From Candidatus Heimdallarchaeota archaeon (GTDB taxonomy: Archaea; Asgardarchaeota; Heimdallarchaeia; Heimdallarchaeales; Heimdallarchaeaceae), in assembly GCA_019057375.1 (NCBI GenBank), contig DXJF01000013.1:1-11877 (forward strand): a stretch of 11,877 nucleotides of DNA. The letters run 5' to 3'. A program made the translations under genes and the position numbers. The notes beneath the pieces were generated by a model, which searched no databases, had not been told where the DNA came from, and saw only the letters and a program-made list of their open reading frames with translations. Of this stretch, positions 1 to 11,357 are shown piece by piece; the first letter of the stretch is position 1; every line of letters begins with the position of its first letter.

Positions 1-518
1 ATATTGTCTTCTCTCATATCTTCTTGGAATGCCAGTAAGAAATTCAAATGTGCACACATATAATCAACTTCTTTATCTAGCGAAAAAAGATCATTTTCTA
101 AGAATTTGTTAATGTTTGAGGAATAACAAGAAAGCAAATATTGATGTTTTTCTTCATCCTGATTGAAAAGTTGACTTAAGATATTCCACGTATACATTTT
201 TTGATTTAGCATAATTCCCTTATCAGTTCCATGAAAGATATATATCTGATATTTTGAATTAGTTGTAGCAGTTTCTAAATTTAAAAATTCTACACTTTTG
301 CATTGATAGGATACTGAAATTTTGTCAAAAGTATCGCTTAGTTGTTTCATCAATTTTTCAGTTGTTGGAGTAGAACTATCAAAGAAAATATCAATCTGTA
401 TTTGATTATTATCTTGATTTTTTAGTTCTTGGTTTCCAAAGGTTGTTACCATTATAATTGATGATGATACCACCAAAATAATGGCTATAATACTATATAC
501 TTTTTGTATTTTTACCAT
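1..518 (-). CDS. Secreted or membrane-anchored hypothetical protein, N-terminal 172 codons (runs off the left edge); possible caspase/CHAT-like His-Gly...Cys motif pair
   Basis: Not in the ORF track. Manual translation from ATG 518 is open to position 1: MVKIQKVYSIIAIILVVSSSIIMVTTFGNQ...YQIYIFHGTDKGIML...HQYLLSCYSSNI...EDMREDN. The N-terminus is basic then hydrophobic. Confidence 0.8.
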   Translation of the reverse strand, partial: MVKIQKVYSIIAIILVVSSSIIMVTTFGNQELKNQDNNQIQIDIFFDSSTPTTEKLMKQLSDTFDKISVSYQCKSVEFLNLETATTNSKYQIYIFHGTDKGIMLNQKMYTWNILSQLFNQDEEKHQYLLSCYSSNINKFLENDLFSLDKEVDYMCAHLNFLLAFQEDMREDN

Positions 519-540
519 ATTTAACAACTCAATAATTATA

Positions 541-592
541 CGTCAACATTTCCATTAAACTCTCACCTTCCAATTGTCACATTATGTTGACG
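541..592. repeat. 9-bp perfect inverted repeat CGTCAACAT-N34-ATGTTGACG in the divergent intergenic region
   Basis: 541-549 cgtcaacat is the reverse complement of 584-592 atgttgacg. Confidence 0.6.
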
Positions 593-721
593 CAAAGGAG
601 CTATTTTTTTTTAGATATTTAAATGTTATCTAGATAAAATCAGCAAGTTTGTTAATAATTGAGTATATAATTGTCCTTTATTGAAAATGTTTATTATTCA
701 GAAATTGAAAGGAATATAAAA

Positions 722-2359
722 ATGAGTAAGTTCTTCAAAAACGAAAAAATTAAGTTTTTAGTAATTTTTGAGAACAAAGTTACTAATACTATTTTTTTAT
801 GTATTAATATTATAATTTTCTCCTTCACTATAGTGCTTACCCAGATGAAAATTCTACATGTGACGACAAATTCATTATTATTAGATGCTTCACAAATTGC
901 AACAAATTCAAGCGAATTCCTCGTTAGAAGAGCTGACATGGTACTTTTAGCAAAAAATTATCCAGTAGCACTTTTTTTTGAATTATTTTTGATAATTTTT
1001 CTCCTCAATTTGGTTTTCAGCAGATTCTTTCCTAGAAAAACTGGCTTAACTTCGATATATTTGGCGGTTAGAACCATTATACATCTATTAATAACCGGTA
1101 CATCGTTGAAATTTAGCACAATAAGTCTTTGGAATGCACTTCCTGTTAGTGAAGCTATAGTTTCTATTGAAGTTATTTTTTCCAGAACTTATCTATTATT
1201 AATACTTATAGTAGCGCTGCTCTTGCTTTTTCAGGGTTTGTTCCTATTGTTTATTCCCACCAAATCATTTATGAATAGGGATAATAACCAAATCCCTTTT
1301 AGCAAAGAATCTGTTGATGTGATTAAATATTACATGATACTCATGCCTGTTACTTTGTTTATATCAGGTGATGGAAATATGGTTATTTTTTCTTATTTGT
1401 TTGCACTAAACAAGAAAACCAATAGTCAACCTGTTTTATCCGCGTATTATGTTTTTACTTCTTATGCATTTATTTTATTATTTTTCATAATGTTCACCCA
1501 TATAAAAGAACCATTTAACTTTTCTAGAAAAGAGGATTTCAAATATTCAAAGAAGAAATTTCTACTTTTTCTCTCTTTCGGCGTGATTCTTTGGTTATTT
1601 TATTTTTTCTACGGATCATTATTTCTTCTAGAGGGTAATCTTAATATTGAAATTCTTGTTAAATTATTTCAAGTAGAGTTTGAATCCTTTTTATTATTTT
1701 TTATCACAATTCTAGCTCTCAAATATATTCGAAAATTGAAGAAAAAAGATAAACGGCACACAAACTCTCATGATAGGTTAAATGAAGTTTCTACAAAAAG
1801 GAATTTTTCTAAAAAATTATCGATACAAATTGCTAATTATTTTCTTCTAACCTTGATTCTTTGTTCCTCGTTTTTTGCACTACCATTGTTTGTAGATTTA
1901 AGTGATTTCTACTCCTTAGAATCCAAAATTGGGTTAGATATGCAAATAGAAAGAGAATGTTTGATTACCGAAGCAAATTTCTTATCAAACGGAACATTTA
2001 ATTTTAAGGTTTCTATCGCCATAAATTTTTCTAATGTTCCTCTTGAAGCTCAAGGTTCTCTTATTTACATTAGATCGTTAGTGGTTGATACGGATAACAA
2101 TTCCTTTTATGATTCATATTATCCTATAAATAACATTTCAATATTCAATTCATCTGATACAATTACGACGCATATTGGTAGTCCTCACAATGGTCATTCA
2201 ATTATTATTATAGGGTACGGAAATTTTGAAATTATTGGGAGTATAAATCAGACATTTATTGTAGGAGATCAAATTACTTTTGTTTTCTCAGATAGATATG
2301 CAGAAATTTACTTCTCTGTTGTTTTTGTTCCTTATACAGCAATTATAGTGTCAAGTTAG
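722..2359 (+). CDS. Polytopic membrane protein (~10 hydrophobic segments) with a C-terminal soluble beta-rich region; function unknown
   Basis: ORF 671..2359 starts at TTG. The in-frame ATG at 722, preceded by gaaagga, is the likelier start. Many long Phe/Ile/Leu runs, then a hydrophilic C-terminus with N-x-S/T sequons. No family recognised. Confidence 0.75.
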   Translation: MSKFFKNEKIKFLVIFENKVTNTIFLCINIIIFSFTIVLTQMKILHVTTNSLLLDASQIATNSSEFLVRRADMVLLAKNYPVALFFELFLIIFLLNLVFSRFFPRKTGLTSIYLAVRTIIHLLITGTSLKFSTISLWNALPVSEAIVSIEVIFSRTYLLLILIVALLLLFQGLFLLFIPTKSFMNRDNNQIPFSKESVDVIKYYMILMPVTLFISGDGNMVIFSYLFALNKKTNSQPVLSAYYVFTSYAFILLFFIMFTHIKEPFNFSRKEDFKYSKKKFLLFLSFGVILWLFYFFYGSLFLLEGNLNIEILVKLFQVEFESFLLFFITILALKYIRKLKKKDKRHTNSHDRLNEVSTKRNFSKKLSIQIANYFLLTLILCSSFFALPLFVDLSDFYSLESKIGLDMQIERECLITEANFLSNGTFNFKVSIAINFSNVPLEAQGSLIYIRSLVVDTDNNSFYDSYYPINNISIFNSSDTITTHIGSPHNGHSIIIIGYGNFEIIGSINQTFIVGDQITFVFSDRYAEIYFSVVFVPYTAIIVSS

Positions 2360-2363
2360 TGAT

Positions 2364-2936
2364 TTCAATTATTTCAAAATCCATCATGTTGTTGCAATTA
2401 ACTGCTTCCCATTTGACAATGATGAAGAAATGGCTTGGATCAAACAGAAATGCGAATCTCTTGGCGTCACTGCTGCTGAAAGTGAGGTTTTCATGAAAGG
2501 TGGCGAGGGTGGTCTCAACCTCGCTGAAGCCGTTCTTGCTGCCATCGAAAAAGGTTCTGGTGATGTCAAATTCGCTTATGAGTTTTCCGATTCTATTAAA
2601 ACCAAGATTGAAAAAATCGCTACCAAGATCTATGGTGCTAAAGATGTTGAGTATTCTCCCCAAGCTGATCAAGACATCAAAGTTATTGAAACTCTAGGTT
2701 TTTCTGATTTTCCTCTCTGTATGGCTAAAACCCAACTTAGCCTTTCTGATGAAATTGGATTAATGGGTGCTCCAAAAGGTTGGACTTTGAATGTAGATGA
2801 AGTTCGTCTTTATACTGGTGCTCGTTTTATTGTCCCTGTCTGTGGTAGCATGTTCTTGCTGCCTGGTTTACCTCCTGTTCCAGCTGCTAATAGAATGGAC
2901 TATACAGAAGATGGAGAAATTATAGGGTTAAACTAA
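2364..2936 (+). pseudogene. fhs: 5'-truncated formate-tetrahydrofolate ligase (FTHFS), C-terminal third only
   Basis: The frame is open from 2349. It reads ..HHVVAINCFPFDNDEEM..SEVFMKGGEGGLNLAEAV..KIEKIATKIYGA..PLCMAKTQLSLSD..GARFIVPVCG..LPGLPPVPAANRMD..GEIIGL*, all diagnostic of the FTHFS C-terminus. The N-terminal ~370 aa are absent from the window. Confidence 0.9.
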
Positions 2937-2941
2937 CCCTA
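2839..2941 (+). repeat. Direct repeat copy 1: last 103 bp of fhs including the stop codon
   Basis: Ungapped alignment to 5324-5426 with 12 mismatches in 103 bp. Confidence 0.95.
2923..2941. other. Perfect 8-3-8 palindrome TAGGGTTA-AAC-TAACCCTA across the fhs stop codon (recombination site or terminator hairpin)
   Basis: 2923-2930 is the reverse complement of 2934-2941. The copy at 5408-5426 has one mismatch. A T-tract follows both copies. Confidence 0.6.
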
Positions 2942-2948
2942 AAACCTT

Positions 2949-5252
2949 TTATTTTTTCACTTTTTTAATTCCTTTTTTTACAGTATATTTTCCTGTAACG
3001 GATAATACTACAATTGCTGGAATTAATATCATGAAGCCATAATTTATCCTTTCCATGTTTTCATTCAATGGGTAAGGATCTGTAGAGTTTGCATTACCAT
3101 CGACAGGATAAGGTTTCTTACTATCCCAATCATACCAGAAATTGCCTTCTTTGGTTTCTTCTTCATACCAGGTATTATTAGTTCCCATATCATAAGCTTG
3201 AGAAGTACCTCCATAGGCATAAGAAGTACTTCCAAGATTGTTAGATATGAAAATATTATGGTGTATAATGTTACTTTCAGAACCAGATTCTAAAGCGATA
3301 CCATATTCTTCATTTTCCTTTAGAAGATTGTATGTTACTAGACAAGAATCGGAATTAATCAATCCGATTCCCCAGTTGTTGTATTTACATGTGTTATTAG
3401 TAATTAACGAACTTGAGGAACCTACTAAATATATACCTACATAGTTGTTTTCATTGCAAGTATTATTTGTCAGTGTAACAAATGATGAACCTTGAACTAA
3501 AATACCATCATCATTATTGTTACAAACGTTTTTTATTAGTGTCGCCCATGAAGAGTGATATAAGCGGATTCCTCCAAAATAGTTATTTTGGCATATATTG
3601 TCTATTAAAACTATATAAGAAGAATGCTCTACCCTAATCCCCCAATCATTGTCATAACAAACATTGTTTATTAGTGTAGCATTAGGTGAAAAACGTAAAT
3701 AGATTCCACCACATACGTTATTTTCCAATACAACTCCTGGACAAGCTAGCACATGAATATTCTCTTCTAGATTATCATTGCACATATTGTTCAATATCCA
3801 TGCATCATCAGAAATTAATAAATGAAAACCATCCCGCTCATTATTGAAGCAAGCGTTGTTTTGCAACATTACATCTGTAGTATATTCAACAGAAATTCCA
3901 TCATGGGAATTGTAGCTGCACGTATTGTTTTCCAGAATAATCTCGAAAGAAAAAGATACAAAGATGCCATCCATATTATTATTGCAAATATTATTAATCA
4001 ACATAACATTTGTGGAATTTTCTACATTAATGCTCTCATAATCATTATTATTACATGTATTGTTGATTATTGTTGCTTTTTCACACCATTTAAGATCTAT
4101 ACCAAAAGCAGTATTAGTTAATTCTTGGTTGCATATCACTACTTTTGAGCAATTAATCAGAATATATTGTGCATAGCCTTGTTCTGATAAAATCAAACCA
4201 TCTTGATTGATATAAAAACCTATTTTCTTTCCATTTACCAAGTTGTTCTCTAATGTATAATTAAGGTAAGATTCAATAGAATTTTCTGAGACATAAAAAC
4301 CATTATTCTGTATAGTATTGTTGATTAAAGTCGATCCTGCTGAACCTGATATAAAGATACCCTGATATTTATTGTTATTGCAAGTGTTGTTAATCAGTGT
4401 CGCTCTAGCTGAATAGTACATAGAAAGACCGTGTGATAAATAATTGTTATTACATACATTATTGATTATCACAGCTTCTGGTGAACTAGTTATTGCTAAA
4501 CCAGTATTCCCATTATTGCTGCAATCATTATTGGTCACAATAATCTTTGATGAATCCATTATCCTTATACCAACAGCATAGTTATTCGTACAAATACTAT
4601 TAATTATAGAAGCTCTAAAGGAGTATTCTAATAAAATACCTAAAGCATTAGCTTGACAAGTATTGTTTATTAAAACGGTTTCAGGTGAATACCGTACAAA
4701 AATACCGTACCAAACATTAATATTACATGTATTATTTATCACTGTAGATCCTAAACAATGGGATAACGAGATACCTTTACTTCTCCAATAATAATTATTG
4801 TTGCAAATGTTATTAGTCAGGGTTGCATTATTTGAATAGAATACTCTAATTCCATCCCCTCTATTATTACTGCAAGTAGTATTAGTAATAGAAACTGTTC
4901 CTTCAGCTGCATGTTCAATAACTATAGCATCCCAATATGCAAGAACATAACAGTTGCGAACAACAAAGTGTTTTGTTGTACCATTAATATAAATACCTGT
5001 GTCACTAGAAGTAATAATTTCATAATTTTCAATTATATATGGTTCTCCTGAAGTTCCAGATCCAAGAAAACCATAATCTGTGAAATTATCATCATTAACA
5101 ATTACTATAGGATCTCGTGGAACTAAGGACATAATTGTAGGATTAGTGAATTGGTATGTGTAATTAGAAGCAAAGATTGGTTGTATTCTGAAAGTACTTG
5201 TTGAAAGTATAGCCACAATAACTATGATACCAAATACTAGCTTCTTGTTCAT
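2949..5252 (-). CDS. Cell-surface right-handed parallel beta-helix protein (NosD/CASH, PbH1 repeats) with signal peptide and C-terminal membrane anchor
   Basis: 767 aa. Signal peptide MNKKLVFGIIVIVAIL, the motif GSGTSGEPYIIEN, about 20 repeats of GI-x-L-x2-S-x3-T-L-x-NNxCxxN, C-terminal GNFW...DPYPL, then a hydrophobic segment and a Lys tail. Confidence 0.9.
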   Translation of the reverse strand: MNKKLVFGIIVIVAILSTSTFRIQPIFASNYTYQFTNPTIMSLVPRDPIVIVNDDNFTDYGFLGSGTSGEPYIIENYEIITSSDTGIYINGTTKHFVVRNCYVLAYWDAIVIEHAAEGTVSITNTTCSNNRGDGIRVFYSNNATLTNNICNNNYYWRSKGISLSHCLGSTVINNTCNINVWYGIFVRYSPETVLINNTCQANALGILLEYSFRASIINSICTNNYAVGIRIMDSSKIIVTNNDCSNNGNTGLAITSSPEAVIINNVCNNNYLSHGLSMYYSARATLINNTCNNNKYQGIFISGSAGSTLINNTIQNNGFYVSENSIESYLNYTLENNLVNGKKIGFYINQDGLILSEQGYAQYILINCSKVVICNQELTNTAFGIDLKWCEKATIINNTCNNNDYESINVENSTNVMLINNICNNNMDGIFVSFSFEIILENNTCSYNSHDGISVEYTTDVMLQNNACFNNERDGFHLLISDDAWILNNMCNDNLEENIHVLACPGVVLENNVCGGIYLRFSPNATLINNVCYDNDWGIRVEHSSYIVLIDNICQNNYFGGIRLYHSSWATLIKNVCNNNDDGILVQGSSFVTLTNNTCNENNYVGIYLVGSSSSLITNNTCKYNNWGIGLINSDSCLVTYNLLKENEEYGIALESGSESNIIHHNIFISNNLGSTSYAYGGTSQAYDMGTNNTWYEEETKEGNFWYDWDSKKPYPVDGNANSTDPYPLNENMERINYGFMILIPAIVVLSVTGKYTVKKGIKKVKK

Positions 5253-5280
5253 TTTTTTTCACTTAAAACAAAGCTAGTTA

Positions 5281-5295
5281 TTATAAAATTATAAA
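5281..5295 (-). promoter_or_regulatory. Probable TATA box(es) for the beta-helix gene
   Basis: Two minus-strand TTTATAA elements (5281-5287 and 5289-5295) lie 29-43 nt upstream of ATG 5252. Confidence 0.45.
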
Positions 5296-5323
5296 TGTTT
5301 GTGCTTAAAGTAAAAATTTTCTA

Positions 5324-5426
5324 TCTGTAATAGAATGTTCTTAATGCCTGTATTACCTCCAGTTCCAGCTGCTAACAAAATGGATTATACAGAAGATGGA
5401 GAAATTATAGAGTTAAACTAACCCTA
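5324..5426 (+). repeat. Direct repeat copy 2: detached, decayed 3' end of fhs (CNRMFLMPVLPPVPAANKMDYTEDGEIIELN*)
   Basis: 88% identical (91/103) to 2839-2941 with the same frame and stop. Two family-conserved Gly residues (PGL, IxGL) are changed. Confidence 0.95.
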
Positions 5427-5457: not shown

Positions 5458-5904
5458 TTATTGGTGTTTCATAAGATTTTCAAGCAATCTTTCTAAATAT
5501 CTTTCAAATACATCTATCTCTGAGCTTGTAAATCCTTCATAGAATAAATCTGTCATCTCTCTTGATACTCCTAGATATCTTTCCTGAAGTTTTTTCCCTT
5601 CATCAGTTAGATAGATGAGTATTTTACGTCTATCTGTTTTACATGGAACACGTTGCAAATATCCTGCTTCTTCAAGACGATCTAACATAGATGTTAGTGT
5701 TGATTTAGTTAGAGCTGTTTCTTTTGTAAGTTTCACTATTGATATTCCATCTTCTTTCCATAAAGGAAACATAATTCTTCCTTGTGCTGAATTAATCTTA
5801 TCTAGTTTACTTTGTTTAAGTATTCTTGTGAATATGCGTCTTGAAAGTTGATGAATCTTCGAAATAAGGTAACCACCCTTTCTTTGATTTTTCATTGTTT
5901 TCAA
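5458..5904 (-). CDS. MarR-family transcriptional regulator
   Basis: INSAQGRIMFPLWKEDGISIVKLTKETALTKSTLTSMLDRLEEAGYLQRVPCKTDRRKILIYLT is a winged HTH with the DRR wing motif. The start is TTG 5904 or ATG 5895. Confidence 0.93.
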   Translation of the reverse strand: MKTMKNQRKGGYLISKIHQLSRRIFTRILKQSKLDKINSAQGRIMFPLWKEDGISIVKLTKETALTKSTLTSMLDRLEEAGYLQRVPCKTDRRKILIYLTDEGKKLQERYLGVSREMTDLFYEGFTSSEIDVFERYLERLLENLMKHQ

Positions 5905-5920
5905 TAATCCTAGTTTTTTC

Positions 5921-6376
5921 TTATTCTAAATTTTCCGGTATTAGAAAGGAAACATTGCTTAGTTTATGATAGTAATTCCCTGCTTCGGCAACAAAATGAA
6001 ATACAGTATAATCAGGATCATCTACACCAAGAGGGTAATATTTTTCACAACCATCTTCCCACAACATTTCTCTTGATTCTTTATCACGTTTAATTTCTGT
6101 TCTTCCTAAAAGCATCAATCCTTCCCAAGTTTCAAAGTCAACAAAATAAACACAAGTTTTTTTGTTTAGTTTTATTTGTGTTACTCTTTTTGAGGAAGTA
6201 TTGGTTGAAAACCAAATTTCCTTCAAGCCATTATATTTAGCGTTTATCATTGCTTTAATGTTTGGATAACTATCCTCTCCTATTGTACCCACCATAGCAA
6301 TTTCACTCCTTTTAACTAACTCCATGCTTTTTTCTAATGCCAAATTGATTTTTTCTCCTTTTTTCATTCTAATCAC
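5921..6376 (-). CDS. Pyridoxamine 5'-phosphate oxidase-like FMN-binding split-barrel protein
   Basis: IAMVGTIGEDSYPNIKAM..IWFSTNTSSKRVTQIKLNKKTCVYF..GLMLLG..LWEDGCEKYYPLGVDDPDYTV. The start is GTG 6376 or ATG 6367. It lies 16 nt from the MarR gene on the same strand. Confidence 0.88.
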   Translation of the reverse strand: MIRMKKGEKINLALEKSMELVKRSEIAMVGTIGEDSYPNIKAMINAKYNGLKEIWFSTNTSSKRVTQIKLNKKTCVYFVDFETWEGLMLLGRTEIKRDKESREMLWEDGCEKYYPLGVDDPDYTVFHFVAEAGNYYHKLSNVSFLIPENLE

Positions 6377-6424: not shown

Positions 6425-6653
6425 TAACCTTGTCTTTTTTATAATAATTAATTAAAAAGCATGAATTTACTCTCTTGGTCATTTTAAAAAGAAGAATATA
6501 GTTGCAGAATTAAGAGATAAAGGTCTTATTATGATTGGTCTTCGAAAAATATTCAATAAGGAATAAAATTTATTCTTTTTCTTCCTTCTTTTTGTGTAAA
6601 ACGATTGGTTGGTAGAAGTATTTTTAATCTGAAAGATGATTAAACTATTTGTC

Positions 6654-7655
6654 ATGTCAGTACTCATAACAGGTATAACTGGTTTCCTAGGTACTAATTT
6701 AGTGAAGGAGATAAGGAAAAGATACCCAAACAAAAGAATATCAGGGTTGGTTCTTCCTGGTGAAAAAGAGAAATGTGAGGAATTAAATAAGTATGATATA
6801 GATTTCTTCTTTGGGGATCTTGATTCGAAAGAAAGCTTGGTAGGATGTTTAGATGATGTTGAATCAGTTTACCATTTAGCAGCTGTTGTAGATGATCTTG
6901 CACCAATGTCTAGTTTTTACAGAATTAATCACATTGGAACTAAGAATTTGCTTGATGAATTTATTAGAGCTGGTTCAAGGAAATTCATCTATATGTCTAC
7001 ATTAGGTGTTTATGGCTTCAAATTCCCAGATTATCCAATCGATGAAACATACAGAGTTGATTTAATTCCAGGATATAGAGAAAGTAAGTATTTGGGGGAA
7101 CAAGAAGTATTCAAGTATGCGGAGGAATTTGGATTTAAAGCTTCAGCATTAAGGCCTCCTATCATCTTTGGTCCTGGAGATCACTGGGCTCCAACAGTAT
7201 TCAATTTAGTCGAAAATAATCTTAAAATACCCTTCATCACCAAAGGAAAAGTAATTTTTTCTTATAGCTATTTTGAAGATGTTGTTGATGCTTTGATAAA
7301 AATGGAAGAAGTAGATAAGGCCAGAGGGGAAATATTTAATCACACTAGTTTTATTCTTACTAGACACGAACTATTTGAAACAGCTGCTAAAATATGTAAA
7401 ACAAAGCTTAATTCTTTCAACCTAAATTATAATATTGCTATGCTTATTGGCTTCTTTGGAGAGCTACAATGGAAACTTTTCAAGAAAAAACCATTGTTAA
7501 ATAGATATAGAGTTAATCAGATGGGCAAGACTAGAATAGTGAATACAGAGAAAATCGAAAGCATTTTGGGTGTTACTAGTAAGAAAACATTCAAAGAAGC
7601 TTTAACAGAAACTTATAACTGGTATTTGAAAAATAAAAAAGAGCAGGGAATATAA
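6654..7655 (+). CDS. NAD-dependent epimerase/dehydratase, extended SDR (3-beta-HSD-like subgroup)
   Basis: LITGITGFLG (GxxGxxG), YHLAA, YMSTLGVYG, catalytic YRESK (YxxxK), LRPPIIFGPGD. The track start is 6636; ATG 6654 fits the fold better. Confidence 0.92.
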   Translation: MSVLITGITGFLGTNLVKEIRKRYPNKRISGLVLPGEKEKCEELNKYDIDFFFGDLDSKESLVGCLDDVESVYHLAAVVDDLAPMSSFYRINHIGTKNLLDEFIRAGSRKFIYMSTLGVYGFKFPDYPIDETYRVDLIPGYRESKYLGEQEVFKYAEEFGFKASALRPPIIFGPGDHWAPTVFNLVENNLKIPFITKGKVIFSYSYFEDVVDALIKMEEVDKARGEIFNHTSFILTRHELFETAAKICKTKLNSFNLNYNIAMLIGFFGELQWKLFKKKPLLNRYRVNQMGKTRIVNTEKIESILGVTSKKTFKEALTETYNWYLKNKKEQGI

Positions 7656-7681: not shown

Positions 7682-8458
7682 TTATATTTTGAATTTGGTT
7701 GATTCAAAATAATTTAGATGAACTATTTCACAACCACAGTTTTCTGCAGCTGTGCCATAATTATTTAGAAACATTAAATCCGCTCCTTCTGCATAATGAA
7801 TAGGTATGAAATATTCTGGATTTATTGTATCGATAGCATTGACAACATCTTGATCTACCATAGTTTGACATCCTGGTCCTAAAGGTAACAGGGCAACATT
7901 GATTAAGTCAGTTATCTGCGAATATTCTGGAATGTTTGATGAATCTCCAGCATGGAAGAATGTGAATCCATCAATATCTATTATGTAGCTAGTATAATTA
8001 CTCTCTTGAGGATGACTAGAGACATAACCTAAAGGAGCAAAAGTATACATGTAGAAGGCTGTTATTTTAATAGGTCCAATATTAAAAGTGTCTCCAGGTT
8101 TTACTCCTGTTCCATTATATCCGGTAATGAAGCTAGTCATGATTTCTGGGAAGAAGAATTGTGTATCATCTTTTTCTATTAGCTGTAACATCGTAGTTGA
8201 ACAGTGGTCTCCATGATCGTGAGTTATGAGCACTGCATCCGCAGGATAATCACTATAATTACTTGGCAAATTATAAGGATCAATGTAAATTCTCAAACCC
8301 TTTGCTTCTATCATTACACCAGCATTATATAGAAGTGTGAAATTAATTGTTGAGTTTTTATTAACAATAACTACAGCTGTTGGAACAACTACTGCAGTCA
8401 CAGCTACTGCTGAACTTACTATTATAATTAAGATTATTGCTTTCTTTGTAAGAGCCAT
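7682..8458 (-). CDS. Membrane-anchored or exported metallo-beta-lactamase-fold hydrolase (UPF0173-like)
   Basis: YIDPY, LITHDHGDH (HxHxDH), FFHAGDS, PIHY. N-terminal hydrophobic helix after MALTKK. Confidence 0.9.
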   Translation of the reverse strand: MALTKKAIILIIIVSSAVAVTAVVVPTAVVIVNKNSTINFTLLYNAGVMIEAKGLRIYIDPYNLPSNYSDYPADAVLITHDHGDHCSTTMLQLIEKDDTQFFFPEIMTSFITGYNGTGVKPGDTFNIGPIKITAFYMYTFAPLGYVSSHPQESNYTSYIIDIDGFTFFHAGDSSNIPEYSQITDLINVALLPLGPGCQTMVDQDVVNAIDTINPEYFIPIHYAEGADLMFLNNYGTAAENCGCEIVHLNYFESTKFKI

Positions 8459-8566
8459 AATATTTAGAACTTTGTTAAGACACTTATATCTATTTCATCT
8501 AGAACCGGCAACAAATTTCTTTGGTGTTTATATATTGAACTTCTAGACTCTTTATCGAAAGTAATC

Positions 8567-9007
8567 ATGCTTAATCTCAAAAAACAGGAAACAAAACAAA
8601 AACAATTTTTTTCACTATTTGATTTTGAATATCAAAAATTAGTTAGCGTCGGTTTAGATTTGATTCAAGACGGAGATATTGATTCAGCGATATTGTTTTT
8701 TCAGGAACTTTCACTCTCTTCACCTCACTCTTCCTTCTCCTATTTCTATTTAGGAAATTTACACACTGTAAAAGATGATTTAGATCTAGCTGTGGGCTAT
8801 TATTCACTTGCATGGGAGGTTAATGATAATCCTCTTTTGACTTCTAGACTCCCCTGTAAAGTTCTTTCAACACTTGTTTCTATGCAATCTGTAGACTTAG
8901 AGTTACTCTCCCTCTGGTTAGAACGGTCTAAAGAATTTCTTGATTCTTATGCCTGTGATGAGCTTCTAATTTATGATTATGCTCAGAGAATAATCTCCTC
9001 AAATTAA
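8567..9007 (+). CDS. Small tetratricopeptide-repeat protein
   Basis: GLDLIQDGDIDSAILFFQEL..P..SFSYFYLGNLHTVKDDLDLAVGYYSLAWEVN fits two TPR-like helical hairpins. Confidence 0.75.
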   Translation: MLNLKKQETKQKQFFSLFDFEYQKLVSVGLDLIQDGDIDSAILFFQELSLSSPHSSFSYFYLGNLHTVKDDLDLAVGYYSLAWEVNDNPLLTSRLPCKVLSTLVSMQSVDLELLSLWLERSKEFLDSYACDELLIYDYAQRIISSN

Positions 9008-9058: not shown

Positions 9059-10300
9059 TCATTTACTTTCTTCTGTTTCATATGTTATTTCACATATTCT
9101 ATGTTTACTCTTAAGCAAGTTAATTGTAACTTTGCTTGAATCTTTAATCCACTTTTCACAGGAATTACAGATTATTTCATTTGGGTATCTCCAATAATTG
9201 CAAACAACAAGGAATTTAACCTGTTCTTCCGTTTCTTGAATAAAATGATCGGATATGAATGGTGCTTTGTTAAACAATTGAATTAGTCTTATCATTGGAT
9301 CAAATTCATAGTAGAACTGTTCTCCTATATCATCTCTGATGAGTTCTATTGTTTTTTCTCTATCTTCTATAGCCATTTCCCTGATTGTTTGATCTTCTCT
9401 ATATGAAGTGATTTCTCTATTTGATCCACCAGGAGCTATTTGAAAAATACAATCCTTTACATAACTGTATTCAGAAGCACATCTCATCTCATCACAGATG
9501 ATATGCTCATCTAGAATTTTACTGAAGACTGCTTCAAGCATACCTTCAACAAAAGCACAAGTCTTTGTAGCAATTACTCCTAAAGATTCTGTCCAAATAG
9601 AACTATCAAGTGAGACTGTTGCTACCTTCTCTCCTGGATCAAAATGAAGTATGTTGATATTTCCCCATCTAGAAATAATTGGAGATTGTACTATTGCATC
9701 TAAATAAGACCTTAAGTTTTCAAATTCCCCTTCATGAACTTGTTGTAAGACTTGTTTTCCTGCTTCATAACCTATTTTTCCGAGAATTTGAGAAGTTGCG
9801 TCCTTAGCGCCTTCAAATTGCCCATAGAATATTTCTTGAAAAATGTTTATTGCATTGTCTCTTAATGCGTTCAAGCAAGTTTCAATTTCAGGAAAATCAT
9901 CTAAAATTGGATTAGAATATGTTATGATAATAAACATTTCAGAAAGCATCATGAGTTTGCTTATTGTTTTTGACATTTCCTCTTCGAGCGATGATATTGT
10001 AAGATATTCCGTAATTGTAGGGTCAAAAATCACAAATGAAATCATGAATTGTTCAACTCCTCCCCTCGCCATTGGATTTGGTATTGAGAAAAACATGCTT
10101 GAATAAACAACATTTGCCATTGCATTGACAATTGCTTTCATTTCTTGAAGAAAATTAAAATCCATAAGTCTTGTTAAGGAAGCTGTAATTCTAGGGTCTT
10201 GTATTTCAGCTACATTGAACAGTAATCTAGGTCCTAATCTTTGATCAAAGTGAAATAACATCACGTTAATCCTATTTCTTAGATCTACTCTTTCAGTCAT
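9059..10300 (-). CDS. Multidomain protein: longin/uDENN(NPR2)-like N-terminus, V4R domain with Zn ligands, Cys-containing C-terminal domain
   Basis: N-terminal MLFHFDQRLGPRLLF and IPNPMARGGVEQFMISFV. V4R region: LGKIGYEAGK..RWGNINI..TCAFVEGMLEAVFS..CDEMRC..KDCIFQI, with C248-E271-C274-C284. Confidence 0.8.
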   Translation of the reverse strand: MTERVDLRNRINVMLFHFDQRLGPRLLFNVAEIQDPRITASLTRLMDFNFLQEMKAIVNAMANVVYSSMFFSIPNPMARGGVEQFMISFVIFDPTITEYLTISSLEEEMSKTISKLMMLSEMFIIITYSNPILDDFPEIETCLNALRDNAINIFQEIFYGQFEGAKDATSQILGKIGYEAGKQVLQQVHEGEFENLRSYLDAIVQSPIISRWGNINILHFDPGEKVATVSLDSSIWTESLGVIATKTCAFVEGMLEAVFSKILDEHIICDEMRCASEYSYVKDCIFQIAPGGSNREITSYREDQTIREMAIEDREKTIELIRDDIGEQFYYEFDPMIRLIQLFNKAPFISDHFIQETEEQVKFLVVCNYWRYPNEIICNSCEKWIKDSSKVTINLLKSKHRICEITYETEESK

Positions 10301-11357
10301 TTGTCATCATCTTTTTGGAAGCATAAATATAAGCTAAACTAAATGATGGATTTATTTCTGCTGTTTTAATAATATCTGCTGCTCTACTTATATCACTATA
10401 TTCATTCTTCTCCAATAGATATTGATAAAGAATATTCGCCCCAATTCCTGTTATAATAATTTTATTCAGTTGATATTCTTCCTTCTTCCTTTTTATTATC
10501 TGATTGATTCTTTCAAGCATTTTCACCTTTAATAAATGAGCAATCTTGATTAAGTCTAGTTCATCAAATTTTTCATCAACAATGCAAAACATGCTTTTTA
10601 CTCTATTCAAGGCATCTTCCTTGAATTTTGCTTTTTTATCTGGTGTATTTGTAATATAATCAGATGGTTGTATATCCTCTGTTATTGTAAAAATGTCCGC
10701 AGTTATTGCATGAGTTTCGAATGGGAGATTGAATGTTTTTCCATTATACTCGAAAGTAGGTTGGATAAAAGCTGCATTTGTTTCCATCAATCCTAAAAAA
10801 ACCAATTCATCATTCATCATTCGATCATGGTCTGATTTAGAATTAGAAAGTATTTTTCCTTCTCGAATGGGGATGAAACTTGTTGTTCGTGTTGAAAAGT
10901 CAACTATCAGACCATCCTGCTTTATCATTTGCCATAATCCTTTTCCAAGTGCCTTCCATCCAACCGAAACCACTTTAGAAGGATTTTCTAAAGCTTGTTT
11001 AATAGATACAAATTCTTCATCATGTGTGTAAAGAACAATATTCGCAGGTTGTATGAATTTAGTAACTGAATTAATAATGAATTCCACAGTTTCTTTTGCT
11101 GAAGCAAAAAGAGGACTAGTAGTAGTTAAAATAAACTTTCGGATATTATAATCAGCATAGGAGCGCAAGATAGTCTTTAGATCTCCTTCTACTTCCTCTT
11201 TTCTTATTTTTAAAGGAAAATAAATTCTTTGGGAATGGAAAGGTTCTTCTGGATGAGTGGGATCAACTATCACTATTTTAAGTGATGTCACTCCAAAATC
11301 CAATACGGCAATATTTCCTTTATCACTGGTAAAGCTTGTTGATTTGTTAGTTGCCAT
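10293..11357 (-). CDS. mfnF: Divergent MfnF-like protein (hydantoinase/oxoprolinase family, ASKHA actin-like fold; H4MPT/methanofuran-linked C1 family)
   Basis: Motifs are collinear with MfnF/Orf9 as recalled: AVLDFGVTSLK, YFPL, SVGW, DGLIVDFSTRTTSFIPI, SDHDRMMNDELVFLG, AITADI, DYITNTPD, ITGIGANIL. The gene overlaps the downstream gene by 8 bp (ATGACTGA). Confidence 0.8.
   Translation of the reverse strand: MATNKSTSFTSDKGNIAVLDFGVTSLKIVIVDPTHPEEPFHSQRIYFPLKIRKEEVEGDLKTILRSYADYNIRKFILTTTSPLFASAKETVEFIINSVTKFIQPANIVLYTHDEEFVSIKQALENPSKVVSVGWKALGKGLWQMIKQDGLIVDFSTRTTSFIPIREGKILSNSKSDHDRMMNDELVFLGLMETNAAFIQPTFEYNGKTFNLPFETHAITADIFTITEDIQPSDYITNTPDKKAKFKEDALNRVKSMFCIVDEKFDELDLIKIAHLLKVKMLERINQIIKRKKEEYQLNKIIITGIGANILYQYLLEKNEYSDISRAADIIKTAEINPSFSLAYIYASKKMMTND

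Follow-up and report, generated by a model that had tools for sequence, protein, structure and literature searches.

In Torulaspora and Lachancea yeasts, WHO elements replace the 3′ part of the aldolase gene FBA1 from a fixed base, which leaves 99% versus 85% identity on either side of that base, conflicting trees for the 5′ and 3′ parts, and stacked 3′ fragments of the gene (Coughlan et al. 2020, PMC7282813). In E. coli, the e14 prophage supplies icd with a replacement 3′ end that keeps the enzyme gene whole, the original end standing at the far side as the C-terminal pseudogene icdC; recombination between the two ends makes chimeric genes, and excision is ascribed to the site-specific recombination system of the prophage (PMC13626634). 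Here we describe the locus of fhs, the gene of formate-tetrahydrofolate ligase, a central one-carbon enzyme, in Candidatus Heimdallarchaeota. The window analysed is one entire contig (C19; 11,877 nt) of a metagenome-assembled genome (MAG), called G000, of 3.47 Mb in 159 contigs with 4.95% contamination. G-numbers denote genomes, C-numbers contigs and L-numbers the fhs-related loci or contigs that were compared, and the nearest fhs relatives of G000 are likewise Candidatus Heimdallarchaeota MAGs. We find that the fhs locus is a gene-collecting hotspot with no integrase in sight, and that the window makes up the distal portion of a stack of at least three fhs layers. Our favoured explanation, to which we assign a probability of roughly 0.6, is the serial replacement of the fhs 3′ half by foreign halves that bring their neighbour genes with them, in the manner of WHO elements but without an endonuclease gene of their own.

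The likeness to WHO elements covers the replacement of the 3′ part of a housekeeping gene, the identity break (99/85% at FBA1, 98/78% at fhs), the tree conflict and the row of fragments downstream. The two systems differ in that fhs units carry no WHO-like or other recognisable endonuclease gene, that their cargo consists of ordinary accessory genes (surface beta-helix proteins, proteases, transporters, methyltransferases), that the host is an archaeon without meiosis, and that the junctions on the right appear to be non-homologous instead of copies made from a donor fragment. The WHO model also places the youngest unit next to the gene, an order that may apply at fhs. The e14 prophage has an integrase of its own, a short core and a single layer, whereas the fhs arrays have no recombinase, a carried half of 861 nt, stacked layers and varied cargo. 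Mobile endonuclease open reading frames (ORFs) of fungal mitochondria, as in Allomyces atp6, reportedly bring a C-terminal duplicate that replaces the end of the host gene while the resident end stays downstream; those units are said to carry an endonuclease ORF, and none was seen at fhs. Integron cassette arrays resemble fhs arrays in the promoter-proximal stacking of diverse accessory genes between repeated boundary sequences, but the fhs arrays have no IntI, attI or attC, their boundary is part of a protein-coding gene, and their units have their own promoters and either orientation.

The original prediction for this window, made from its letters alone, took a 103-nt repeat for the attachment sites (attL and attR) of a 2.5-kb surface-protein cassette that uses the 3′ end of fhs as its point of integration. 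The repeat itself is as described: positions 2839-2941 recur at 5324-5426, at an offset of 2485, with 91 of 103 positions identical and no gaps. Chance identity at this base composition is 29%, and the sequences flanking the copies are unrelated (8/30 identical positions before them, 13/30 after). Both copies are in frame with the end of fhs, and their identity stops 5 nt beyond the TAA, where a 19-nt palindrome across the stop codon also ends (2923-2941, the last bases common to both copies). The palindrome is kept behind most intact fhs genes and relics of the genus and, together with the T-rich run that follows it, is likely the fhs transcript end. The promoter scan used on the window is a bacterial one, not meaningful for an archaeon and useful only for flagging this palindrome. 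Ten codons differ between the copies, four synonymously (TTG/TTA, CCT/CCA, AAT/AAC and GAC/GAT, all four as predicted) and six non-synonymously.

Neither copy is part of a working fhs. Copy 1 had been read as the end of the fhs gene, but it closes only a 190-codon relic, f1 (2364-2936, plus strand; aa 373-562), which is open with no stop inside, lacks the fhs 5′ part and matches the Pfam family FTHFS (PF01268) at positions 368-555 of 556 only (E 2.8e-63). This frame starts 4 nt past the stop of orf562, an unrelated ORF for a membrane protein of 562 aa. Copy 2 is a 32-codon relic, f2 (5323-5426, plus strand; aa 531-562 with stop and palindrome). The sole intact fhs of G000 is found on another contig, C4 (3285-4970; FTHFS positions 1-555, 789 bits), and two further fragments of the gene lie on C61. 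Genetic code 4 as a cause of the split appearance of fhs made no difference when tested. The 103-nt repeat is the common remainder of two cast-off fhs ends, both worn relics, and the natural unit is a relic with the gene behind it rather than a gene between two att sites.

The gene between the copies (2949-5252, minus strand) is convergent with f1 and encodes a right-handed beta-helix protein of NosD type with 767 aa (Pfam Beta_helix 1.3e-61, NosD 1.3e-60). Judged by its N-terminal signal or membrane segment, many N-x-S/T sites and C-terminal membrane anchor, the product is likely a surface protein. It had been called the only cargo of the cassette, and it is indeed the only ORF between the copies; as a unit, though, it goes with the relic in front of it, since the natural unit is relic plus following gene. 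The beta-helix gene belongs to the f1 layer, as a neighbour that once stood directly behind a working fhs. Homologues lie 9-16 nt behind intact fhs in L011 and L017, and the homologue in L014 (92.6% nucleotide identity) has no flanking fhs relics, contrary to a cassette bracketed by repeats. The upstream, promoter-side spacer of the gene occupies 5253-5322, and its homology with L014 stops at 5294.

The closest relative, L014, also places the window with respect to the intact gene. On C4, the first 170 nt behind fhs correspond to L014 3201-3370 (97.6% identity), and window positions 650-2380 correspond to L014 3370-5100 (95.7%). Because both continue collinearly along L014, C4 and the window are neighbours, parted by a clean insertion of at least 2.3 kb. 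The order in G000 is intact fhs, 170 nt, the insertion, orf562, f1, the beta-helix gene (minus strand), f2, genes for a MarR regulator and a PNPOx-like protein (both minus strand) and an epimerase gene, followed by a metallo-beta-lactamase-fold gene, a 146-aa ORF, a V4R gene and a hydantoinase-like gene. The product of orf562 (671-2359, plus strand) spans the membrane several times and matches no Pfam or PHROG family, and its gene stands directly behind the intact fhs in L014; it is the cargo of the youngest fhs layer. The f2 relic is the oldest and most eroded layer of the window.

Arrays of this kind recur in the genus. In L011, L013, L014, L016 and L017, an intact fhs has behind it, on the same strand, between one and three fhs 3′ pieces, which start at aa 275/276, 460, 484/485, 535, 539, 541 or 549 and end at residue 562, except for one cut by the contig end. 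Depending on the genome, the repeats are between 42 and 864 nt long. Using the final 142 residues as query, we surveyed 25 genomes of the window's genus and 6 genomes of four sister genera, the latter including two single-contig assemblies. More than one fhs 3′ piece is present in 8/25 genomes of the genus and a single copy in 6/6 of the sister genera; the counts of 8/25 versus 0/6 are a description rather than a test, since related genomes are not independent. Empty or near-empty states exist as well: fhs is separated from V4R by 54 nt in L098 and from the epimerase gene by 85 nt in L102, and in L008, L009 and L015 a single gene for a 251-aa surface protein stands between fhs and V4R.

The cargo between the pieces is varied and reshuffled among genomes, and in most arrays the cargo behind the intact gene is unrelated to that behind the relics. 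It includes genes for beta-helix/NosD proteins, caspase- or C13-like proteases with CarboxypepD_reg, an ABC transporter, a P-type ATPase with a TRASH regulator, beta-lactamase-fold proteins, O-methyltransferases, acyltransferases, ICMT-like proteins, amidohydrolases, DUF362 proteins and HAD-aldolase fusions. The units have promoters of their own, and both orientations occur. In L017, two successive units, each made of an fhs half, a beta-helix gene and a caspase-like gene, form a tandem repeat with about 80% identity at both ends; paralogous neighbouring units were seen in this locus only. The arrays and their varied cargo bear out the view that fhs is a recurrent site of insertion or replacement in the genus, and the two checks proposed along with it, for empty sites and for different cargo at the same place in relatives, both gave positive results.

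The point of replacement is fixed in the middle of the gene and not at its 3′ end, where the integration point had been placed. Unrelated DNA precedes five relics that all begin at fhs nt 823-826: those of C61, L013, L017/L103 (two tandem copies), L091/L097 and L100. These nucleotides belong to the codons for P275 and F276 in the conserved GPFANIAHG motif. If breaks fell uniformly along the 1,686 nt of the gene, the probability of four further breaks within 3 nt of the first would be about (7/1686)^4, or ~3e-10 by our own arithmetic. The element-side flanks of the five junctions at F276 share no common sequence and no arm or half-site motif. One pair of metagenome contigs, L100 (Ga0315537_1000426) and L101, shows the states before and after: L100 10000-12794 equals L101 1131-3925 with 100.000% identity over 2,795 nt, starting at fhs nt 825. 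L101 holds a complete fhs, and in L100 the DNA upstream consists of unrelated genes over at least 10 kb. Because this identity is 100%, at least one event must be very recent.

A GGNCC sequence lies directly before the breakpoint, at nt 820-824 (codons of G274 and P275), in 12/12 intact fhs genes examined (e.g. L005 4104-4108), and there are only two or three GGNCC sites per fhs gene. A cut by a restriction enzyme of the TdeIII family, which we take to cleave GGNCC, was considered and rejected: the family is found in only 2/25 genomes of the genus, the junctions never regenerate the site, and such an enzyme would not single out one site. We treat the GGNCC sequence as probably a coincidence.

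The intact fhs genes of the genus are mosaic, with conflicting 5′ and 3′ trees. Up to nt 822 the genes of G000 and L014 share 98% identity, and from nt 823 to nt 1686 they share 78%. They mismatch 16 times in the first 760 nt, 4 times in nt 761-825 and 15 times between nt 826 and nt 900, and in nearly every genome pair identity drops in an interval centred on aa 256-286. The 5′ tree joins G000 and L014 as sisters (support 1.0). The 3′ tree groups the intact gene of G000 with the L013 relic (0.99), f1 with the intact gene of L013 (0.96), and L014 with L013. The roughly 27 nt before the breakpoint (fhs nt 789-815, encoding FEGVPGFIH) have few synonymous sites that vary across the genus, and free variation sets in right after codon 276.

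The relics are usually closer to genes of other genomes than to the intact gene of their own. The f1 relic is 81% identical to its own genome's fhs and 92.5% identical to the intact fhs of L013, which agrees with the predicted presence of two different fhs alleles rather than a simple copy, and its ratio of non-synonymous to synonymous substitution rates (dN/dS) is 0.10. Reciprocally, the L013 relic has 84% identity with the fhs of its own genome and 92% with that of G000 (~99% over aa 406-562). Between relics and their nearest intact alleles dN/dS is 0.05-0.20, between full-size relics 0.05-0.17 (dS 0.8-1.8), and between intact genes 0.06 in the median. Because these values are low, the relics must have diverged as parts of working genes; neutral decay in situ would look different. 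Some relics are plainly dead, the first of C61 having a stop and a 24-nt deletion and the first of L017 a frameshift, and f2 shows relaxed constraint, with dN/dS of 0.26-0.45 against the other copies.

The DNA behind the relics is the old neighbourhood of fhs. Behind the L013 relic lie an O-methyltransferase gene that follows the intact fhs in L010 (87%) and an acyltransferase gene that follows the intact fhs in L007 (95%). We read f1, which begins at aa 373, and f2, which begins at aa 531, as relics eroded from their 5′ side; for f2 this is our inference. In L014, the junction of orf562 and relic is the same as in G000, and there follow about 25 of the first nt of f1, about 48 nt of filler and only the last 20 codons. 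A 151-nt copy (74%) of the V4R 3′ end was observed in L016 (8135-8281), directly before its relic f2, with the full V4R gene 3.5 kb away. Because the copy of the V4R end precedes the relic, the L016 insert is a copy of the same locus, running from within fhs to within V4R.

No gene for a cutting or joining enzyme was recognised in these arrays. Among about 70 cargo ORFs from about 15 arrays, there is no Pfam family of integrases, resolvases, transposases or homing nucleases, and 10 ORFs without a Pfam match have no PHROG match either. There is no gene family common to all units, and the unit of L017 consists of the beta-helix and caspase-like genes only. The lack of an integrase was thus correctly noted, and the proposed check for a linked tyrosine recombinase gave no match to PF00589 (Phage_integrase, E<=0.001) in G000; the family is missing in 6/8 array genomes as well, and has matches in 14/14 control genomes. 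XerA-type recombinases are either very divergent here or missing. Across the family, 16/31 genomes are without a PF00589 match, one single-contig genome among them. LAGLIDADG_3 domains are frequent in these genomes, mostly within very long ORFs, and none lies on the fhs contigs of five array genomes. A virus or plasmid with an fhs half was sought in IMG/VR and none was found. Mobile elements reported to date from Heimdallarchaeum have tRNA genes as their insertion sites (PMC8813620); scans for tRNA genes and Rfam families gave no match in the window, nor did any DNA family match it, and the literature searched contains no paper that describes fhs as a target of integration or arrays like these in Asgard archaea.

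For serial replacement we propose the following sequence of events. A site-specific break would be made at fhs codon 275/276 by an agent that is not encoded in the cassettes. Repair would then be primed in the conserved fhs 5′ part on a foreign chromosome, from which the donor 3′ half and the variable DNA downstream of it would be copied. The left join would fall within fhs homology, so that the gene stays whole with a new 3′ half, and the right end would be joined non-homologously to the old 3′ half at codon 275/276. The old half and everything behind it would be pushed downstream, and its 5′ side would later be lost by deletion.

Several observations weigh against serial replacement. As no cutting or joining enzyme was found, the initiating break is postulated from the positions of the junctions only. 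The scheme predicts an intact fhs upstream of the L100 cargo, and none is seen in the part of that contig that was read; the attempt to link this cargo to an intact gene by way of genome G029 failed, as contig C75 stops 54 nt into the relic. The shorter relics, f1 and f2 included, have scattered starts (aa 373, 460, 485, 494 and 530-549), and erosion, by which we account for them, is shown for one relic only, the f1 of L014. G000 and L014 have the same DNA behind the intact gene yet different 3′ halves, so at least one replacement was a plain conversion patch that brought no new cargo. Conversion patches, possibly templated by relics, could by themselves give the identity break at nt 822-826 in intact genes. 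Since patches alone could make that break, the main evidence for a site-specific event is the set of independent junctions together with the L100/L101 pair. Finally, all genomes compared are MAGs of 72-95% completeness (rounded), from which mobile elements are often left unbinned, and C61, with the second relic set of G000, cannot be placed: it belongs either in the gap that separates C4 from C19 or to a strain binned along with G000.

Homologous recombination by itself is the best of the alternatives, and we consider it unlikely. Here, one ancestral partial duplication with its edge at F276 would have been followed by cassette exchange, excision and reinsertion of circles, and conversion from relics. 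The allele swaps suit this account, with the intact gene of G000 resembling the L013 relic and f1 resembling the intact gene of L013, as do the 3′ half that differs between G000 and L014 in front of unchanged cargo and the tandem unit repeat of L017. Homologous exchange makes no new junctions, however, and there are five at nt 823-826 with unrelated DNA upstream. A single old event would also lead one to expect neutral decay, whereas the dN/dS between relics is 0.05-0.17, and the full identity of L100 and L101 calls for at least one very recent event.

Slightly less probable again are elements of the integrase type, in which a tyrosine or serine recombinase acting in trans would join an attP that contains fhs 3′ sequence to an attB in fhs, and elements would accrete in tandem. 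The geometry fits, with a replacement end on one side, a displaced end on the other and empty sites in relatives; the breakpoint is precise; the e14 insertion in icd is a precedent with the same layout (PMC13626634); and four small serine recombinases are encoded elsewhere in G000, one of them beside a gene-tail duplication on C118. Against it, no array contains a recombinase gene, PF00589 is undetectable in G000 and in 6/8 array genomes, no arms are conserved at the five F276 junctions, the 861 nt of carried homology are far above an att core, and viral contigs hold no fhs half. The same evidence bears on the original prediction, whose attL and attR turn out to be two worn relics from a stack with three or more layers, in a genus where repeat lengths run from 42 to 864 nt; an att system of the integrase type finds no conserved element-side arms and, in most array genomes, no detectable tyrosine recombinase. 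As a whole that prediction is partly supported. Its two alleles, its entry site, its incoming DNA that carries a replacement gene end and displaces the old one, and its lack of an integrase hold up, and its att sites, its 2.5-kb cassette and its 3′-end site do not.

Tandem duplication in situ, with an edge inside fhs and subsequent deletion and decay but no foreign import, is more doubtful still and for the window is largely refuted. It could draw on the double unit of L017, with about 80% identity at both ends, and on other same-strand tail duplications in G000. The relics are nevertheless usually nearer to the alleles of other genomes (f1 81% to its own versus 92.5% to L013; the L013 relic 84% versus 92% to G000), their dN/dS is low, and in most arrays the cargo behind the intact gene is unrelated to that behind the relics. 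An assembly or binning artefact, that is, a strain mixture wrongly joined in the MAG, can practically be dismissed in spite of the 159 contigs, the 4.95% contamination and the unplaceable C61, because the architecture is repeated in independent assemblies of different projects on contigs of 20-220 kb and the window is collinear with L014, L007 and L013 across the junctions.

The second relic set of G000, on C61 (L006), occupies 2389-3225, 4131-4274 and 5521-6276. It comprises aa 276-562, interrupted by one stop and a deletion of 24 nt, and an internal piece of aa 398-445. These relics adjoin an ICMT-like gene with 93% nucleotide identity to the one behind relic f3 of L014, as well as a gene for a TdeIII-family restriction endonuclease.

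Another displaced fhs tail (aa 531-562) is found in L088 (G016:C116, 6391-9366), outside the fhs locus of its genome. It is accompanied by two genes that stand directly upstream of fhs in L009 and L015, in a block embedded in a region syntenic with C150 of G000. The block looks like a copy of a foreign fhs locus that landed elsewhere with most of fhs deleted. The tail starts at the same residue as f2 in an unrelated context, for which we offer no explanation.

Other long ORFs of G000 also have same-strand duplications of their tails. Among the plus-strand genes screened, the last 100-260 nt recur 1.5-7.5 kb apart with 75-96% identity in four cases: C118 5872-6065/7365-7558, C77 11927-12091/16907-17071, C131 2232-2340/9751-9859 and C112 5763-6026/11824-12087. 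On C118, a serine recombinase gene (8195-8638) lies just past the second tail copy.

The remaining features of the window lie on both sides of the relics. At its left end, positions 1-649 are the right end of the later insertion between C4 and the window, with a clean break relative to L014. The insertion as a whole (window 1-649 plus C4 5141-6766) encodes a very acidic 494-aa ORF and, inside its right end, a 175-aa ORF with an N-terminal membrane segment that anchors it (3-527, minus strand). Neither has a Pfam match, and the larger of the two is without a PHROG match as well; the C4 part has no DNA match in the loci of relatives. At the edges of the insertion there is no fhs relic and no evident target duplication.

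Behind f2 lie four genes whose presence varies between relatives, namely those for the MarR regulator (5458-5904, minus strand), the PNPOx-like protein (5921-6376, minus strand), the NAD epimerase (6636-7655, plus strand) and the metallo-beta-lactamase-fold protein (7682-8458, minus strand). The conserved downstream frame follows from 8567 to the contig end at 11877, with the 146-aa ORF, the V4R-domain protein (9059-10300, minus strand), the hydantoinase-like protein (10293-11357, minus strand) and an ORF that is open at the contig end. Genes of this frame also follow the fhs region in L007, L008, L009, L011, L018, L019 and L098. In relatives, the locus as a whole is framed by an FMN-dehydrogenase gene, an M50 peptidase gene (minus strand) and fhs (plus strand) on one side of the variable stretch, and by the V4R and hydantoinase-like genes (both minus strand) on the other.

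A wider reading can be put forward tentatively. Archaea of the Heimdall group may possess a mode of gene capture for which the captured DNA has to encode neither an integrase nor a homing endonuclease, and in which a host or trans-acting agent would break fhs at codon 275/276, repair from a foreign chromosome would bring in a gene half with its operon, and the far end would be joined non-homologously; fhs would then be one instance of a general piling up of accessory genes behind housekeeping genes in Asgard archaea. We hold this combined proposal to be possible and clearly less probable than serial replacement at fhs itself.

How Asgard archaea gain genes is a subject of study, and here the gene of a central one-carbon enzyme is a repeated entry point for surface proteins, transporters and other accessory genes, with a breakpoint precise to the nucleotide and no recognisable recombinase. 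The annotation of 'partial fhs' ORFs in these MAGs should call them relics and not genes. If the proposed mechanism is true, it would be an archaeal counterpart of the yeast WHO/HO system with a concrete, testable target site, and it would explain the conflicting histories of fhs alleles, which is relevant wherever fhs serves as a marker gene.

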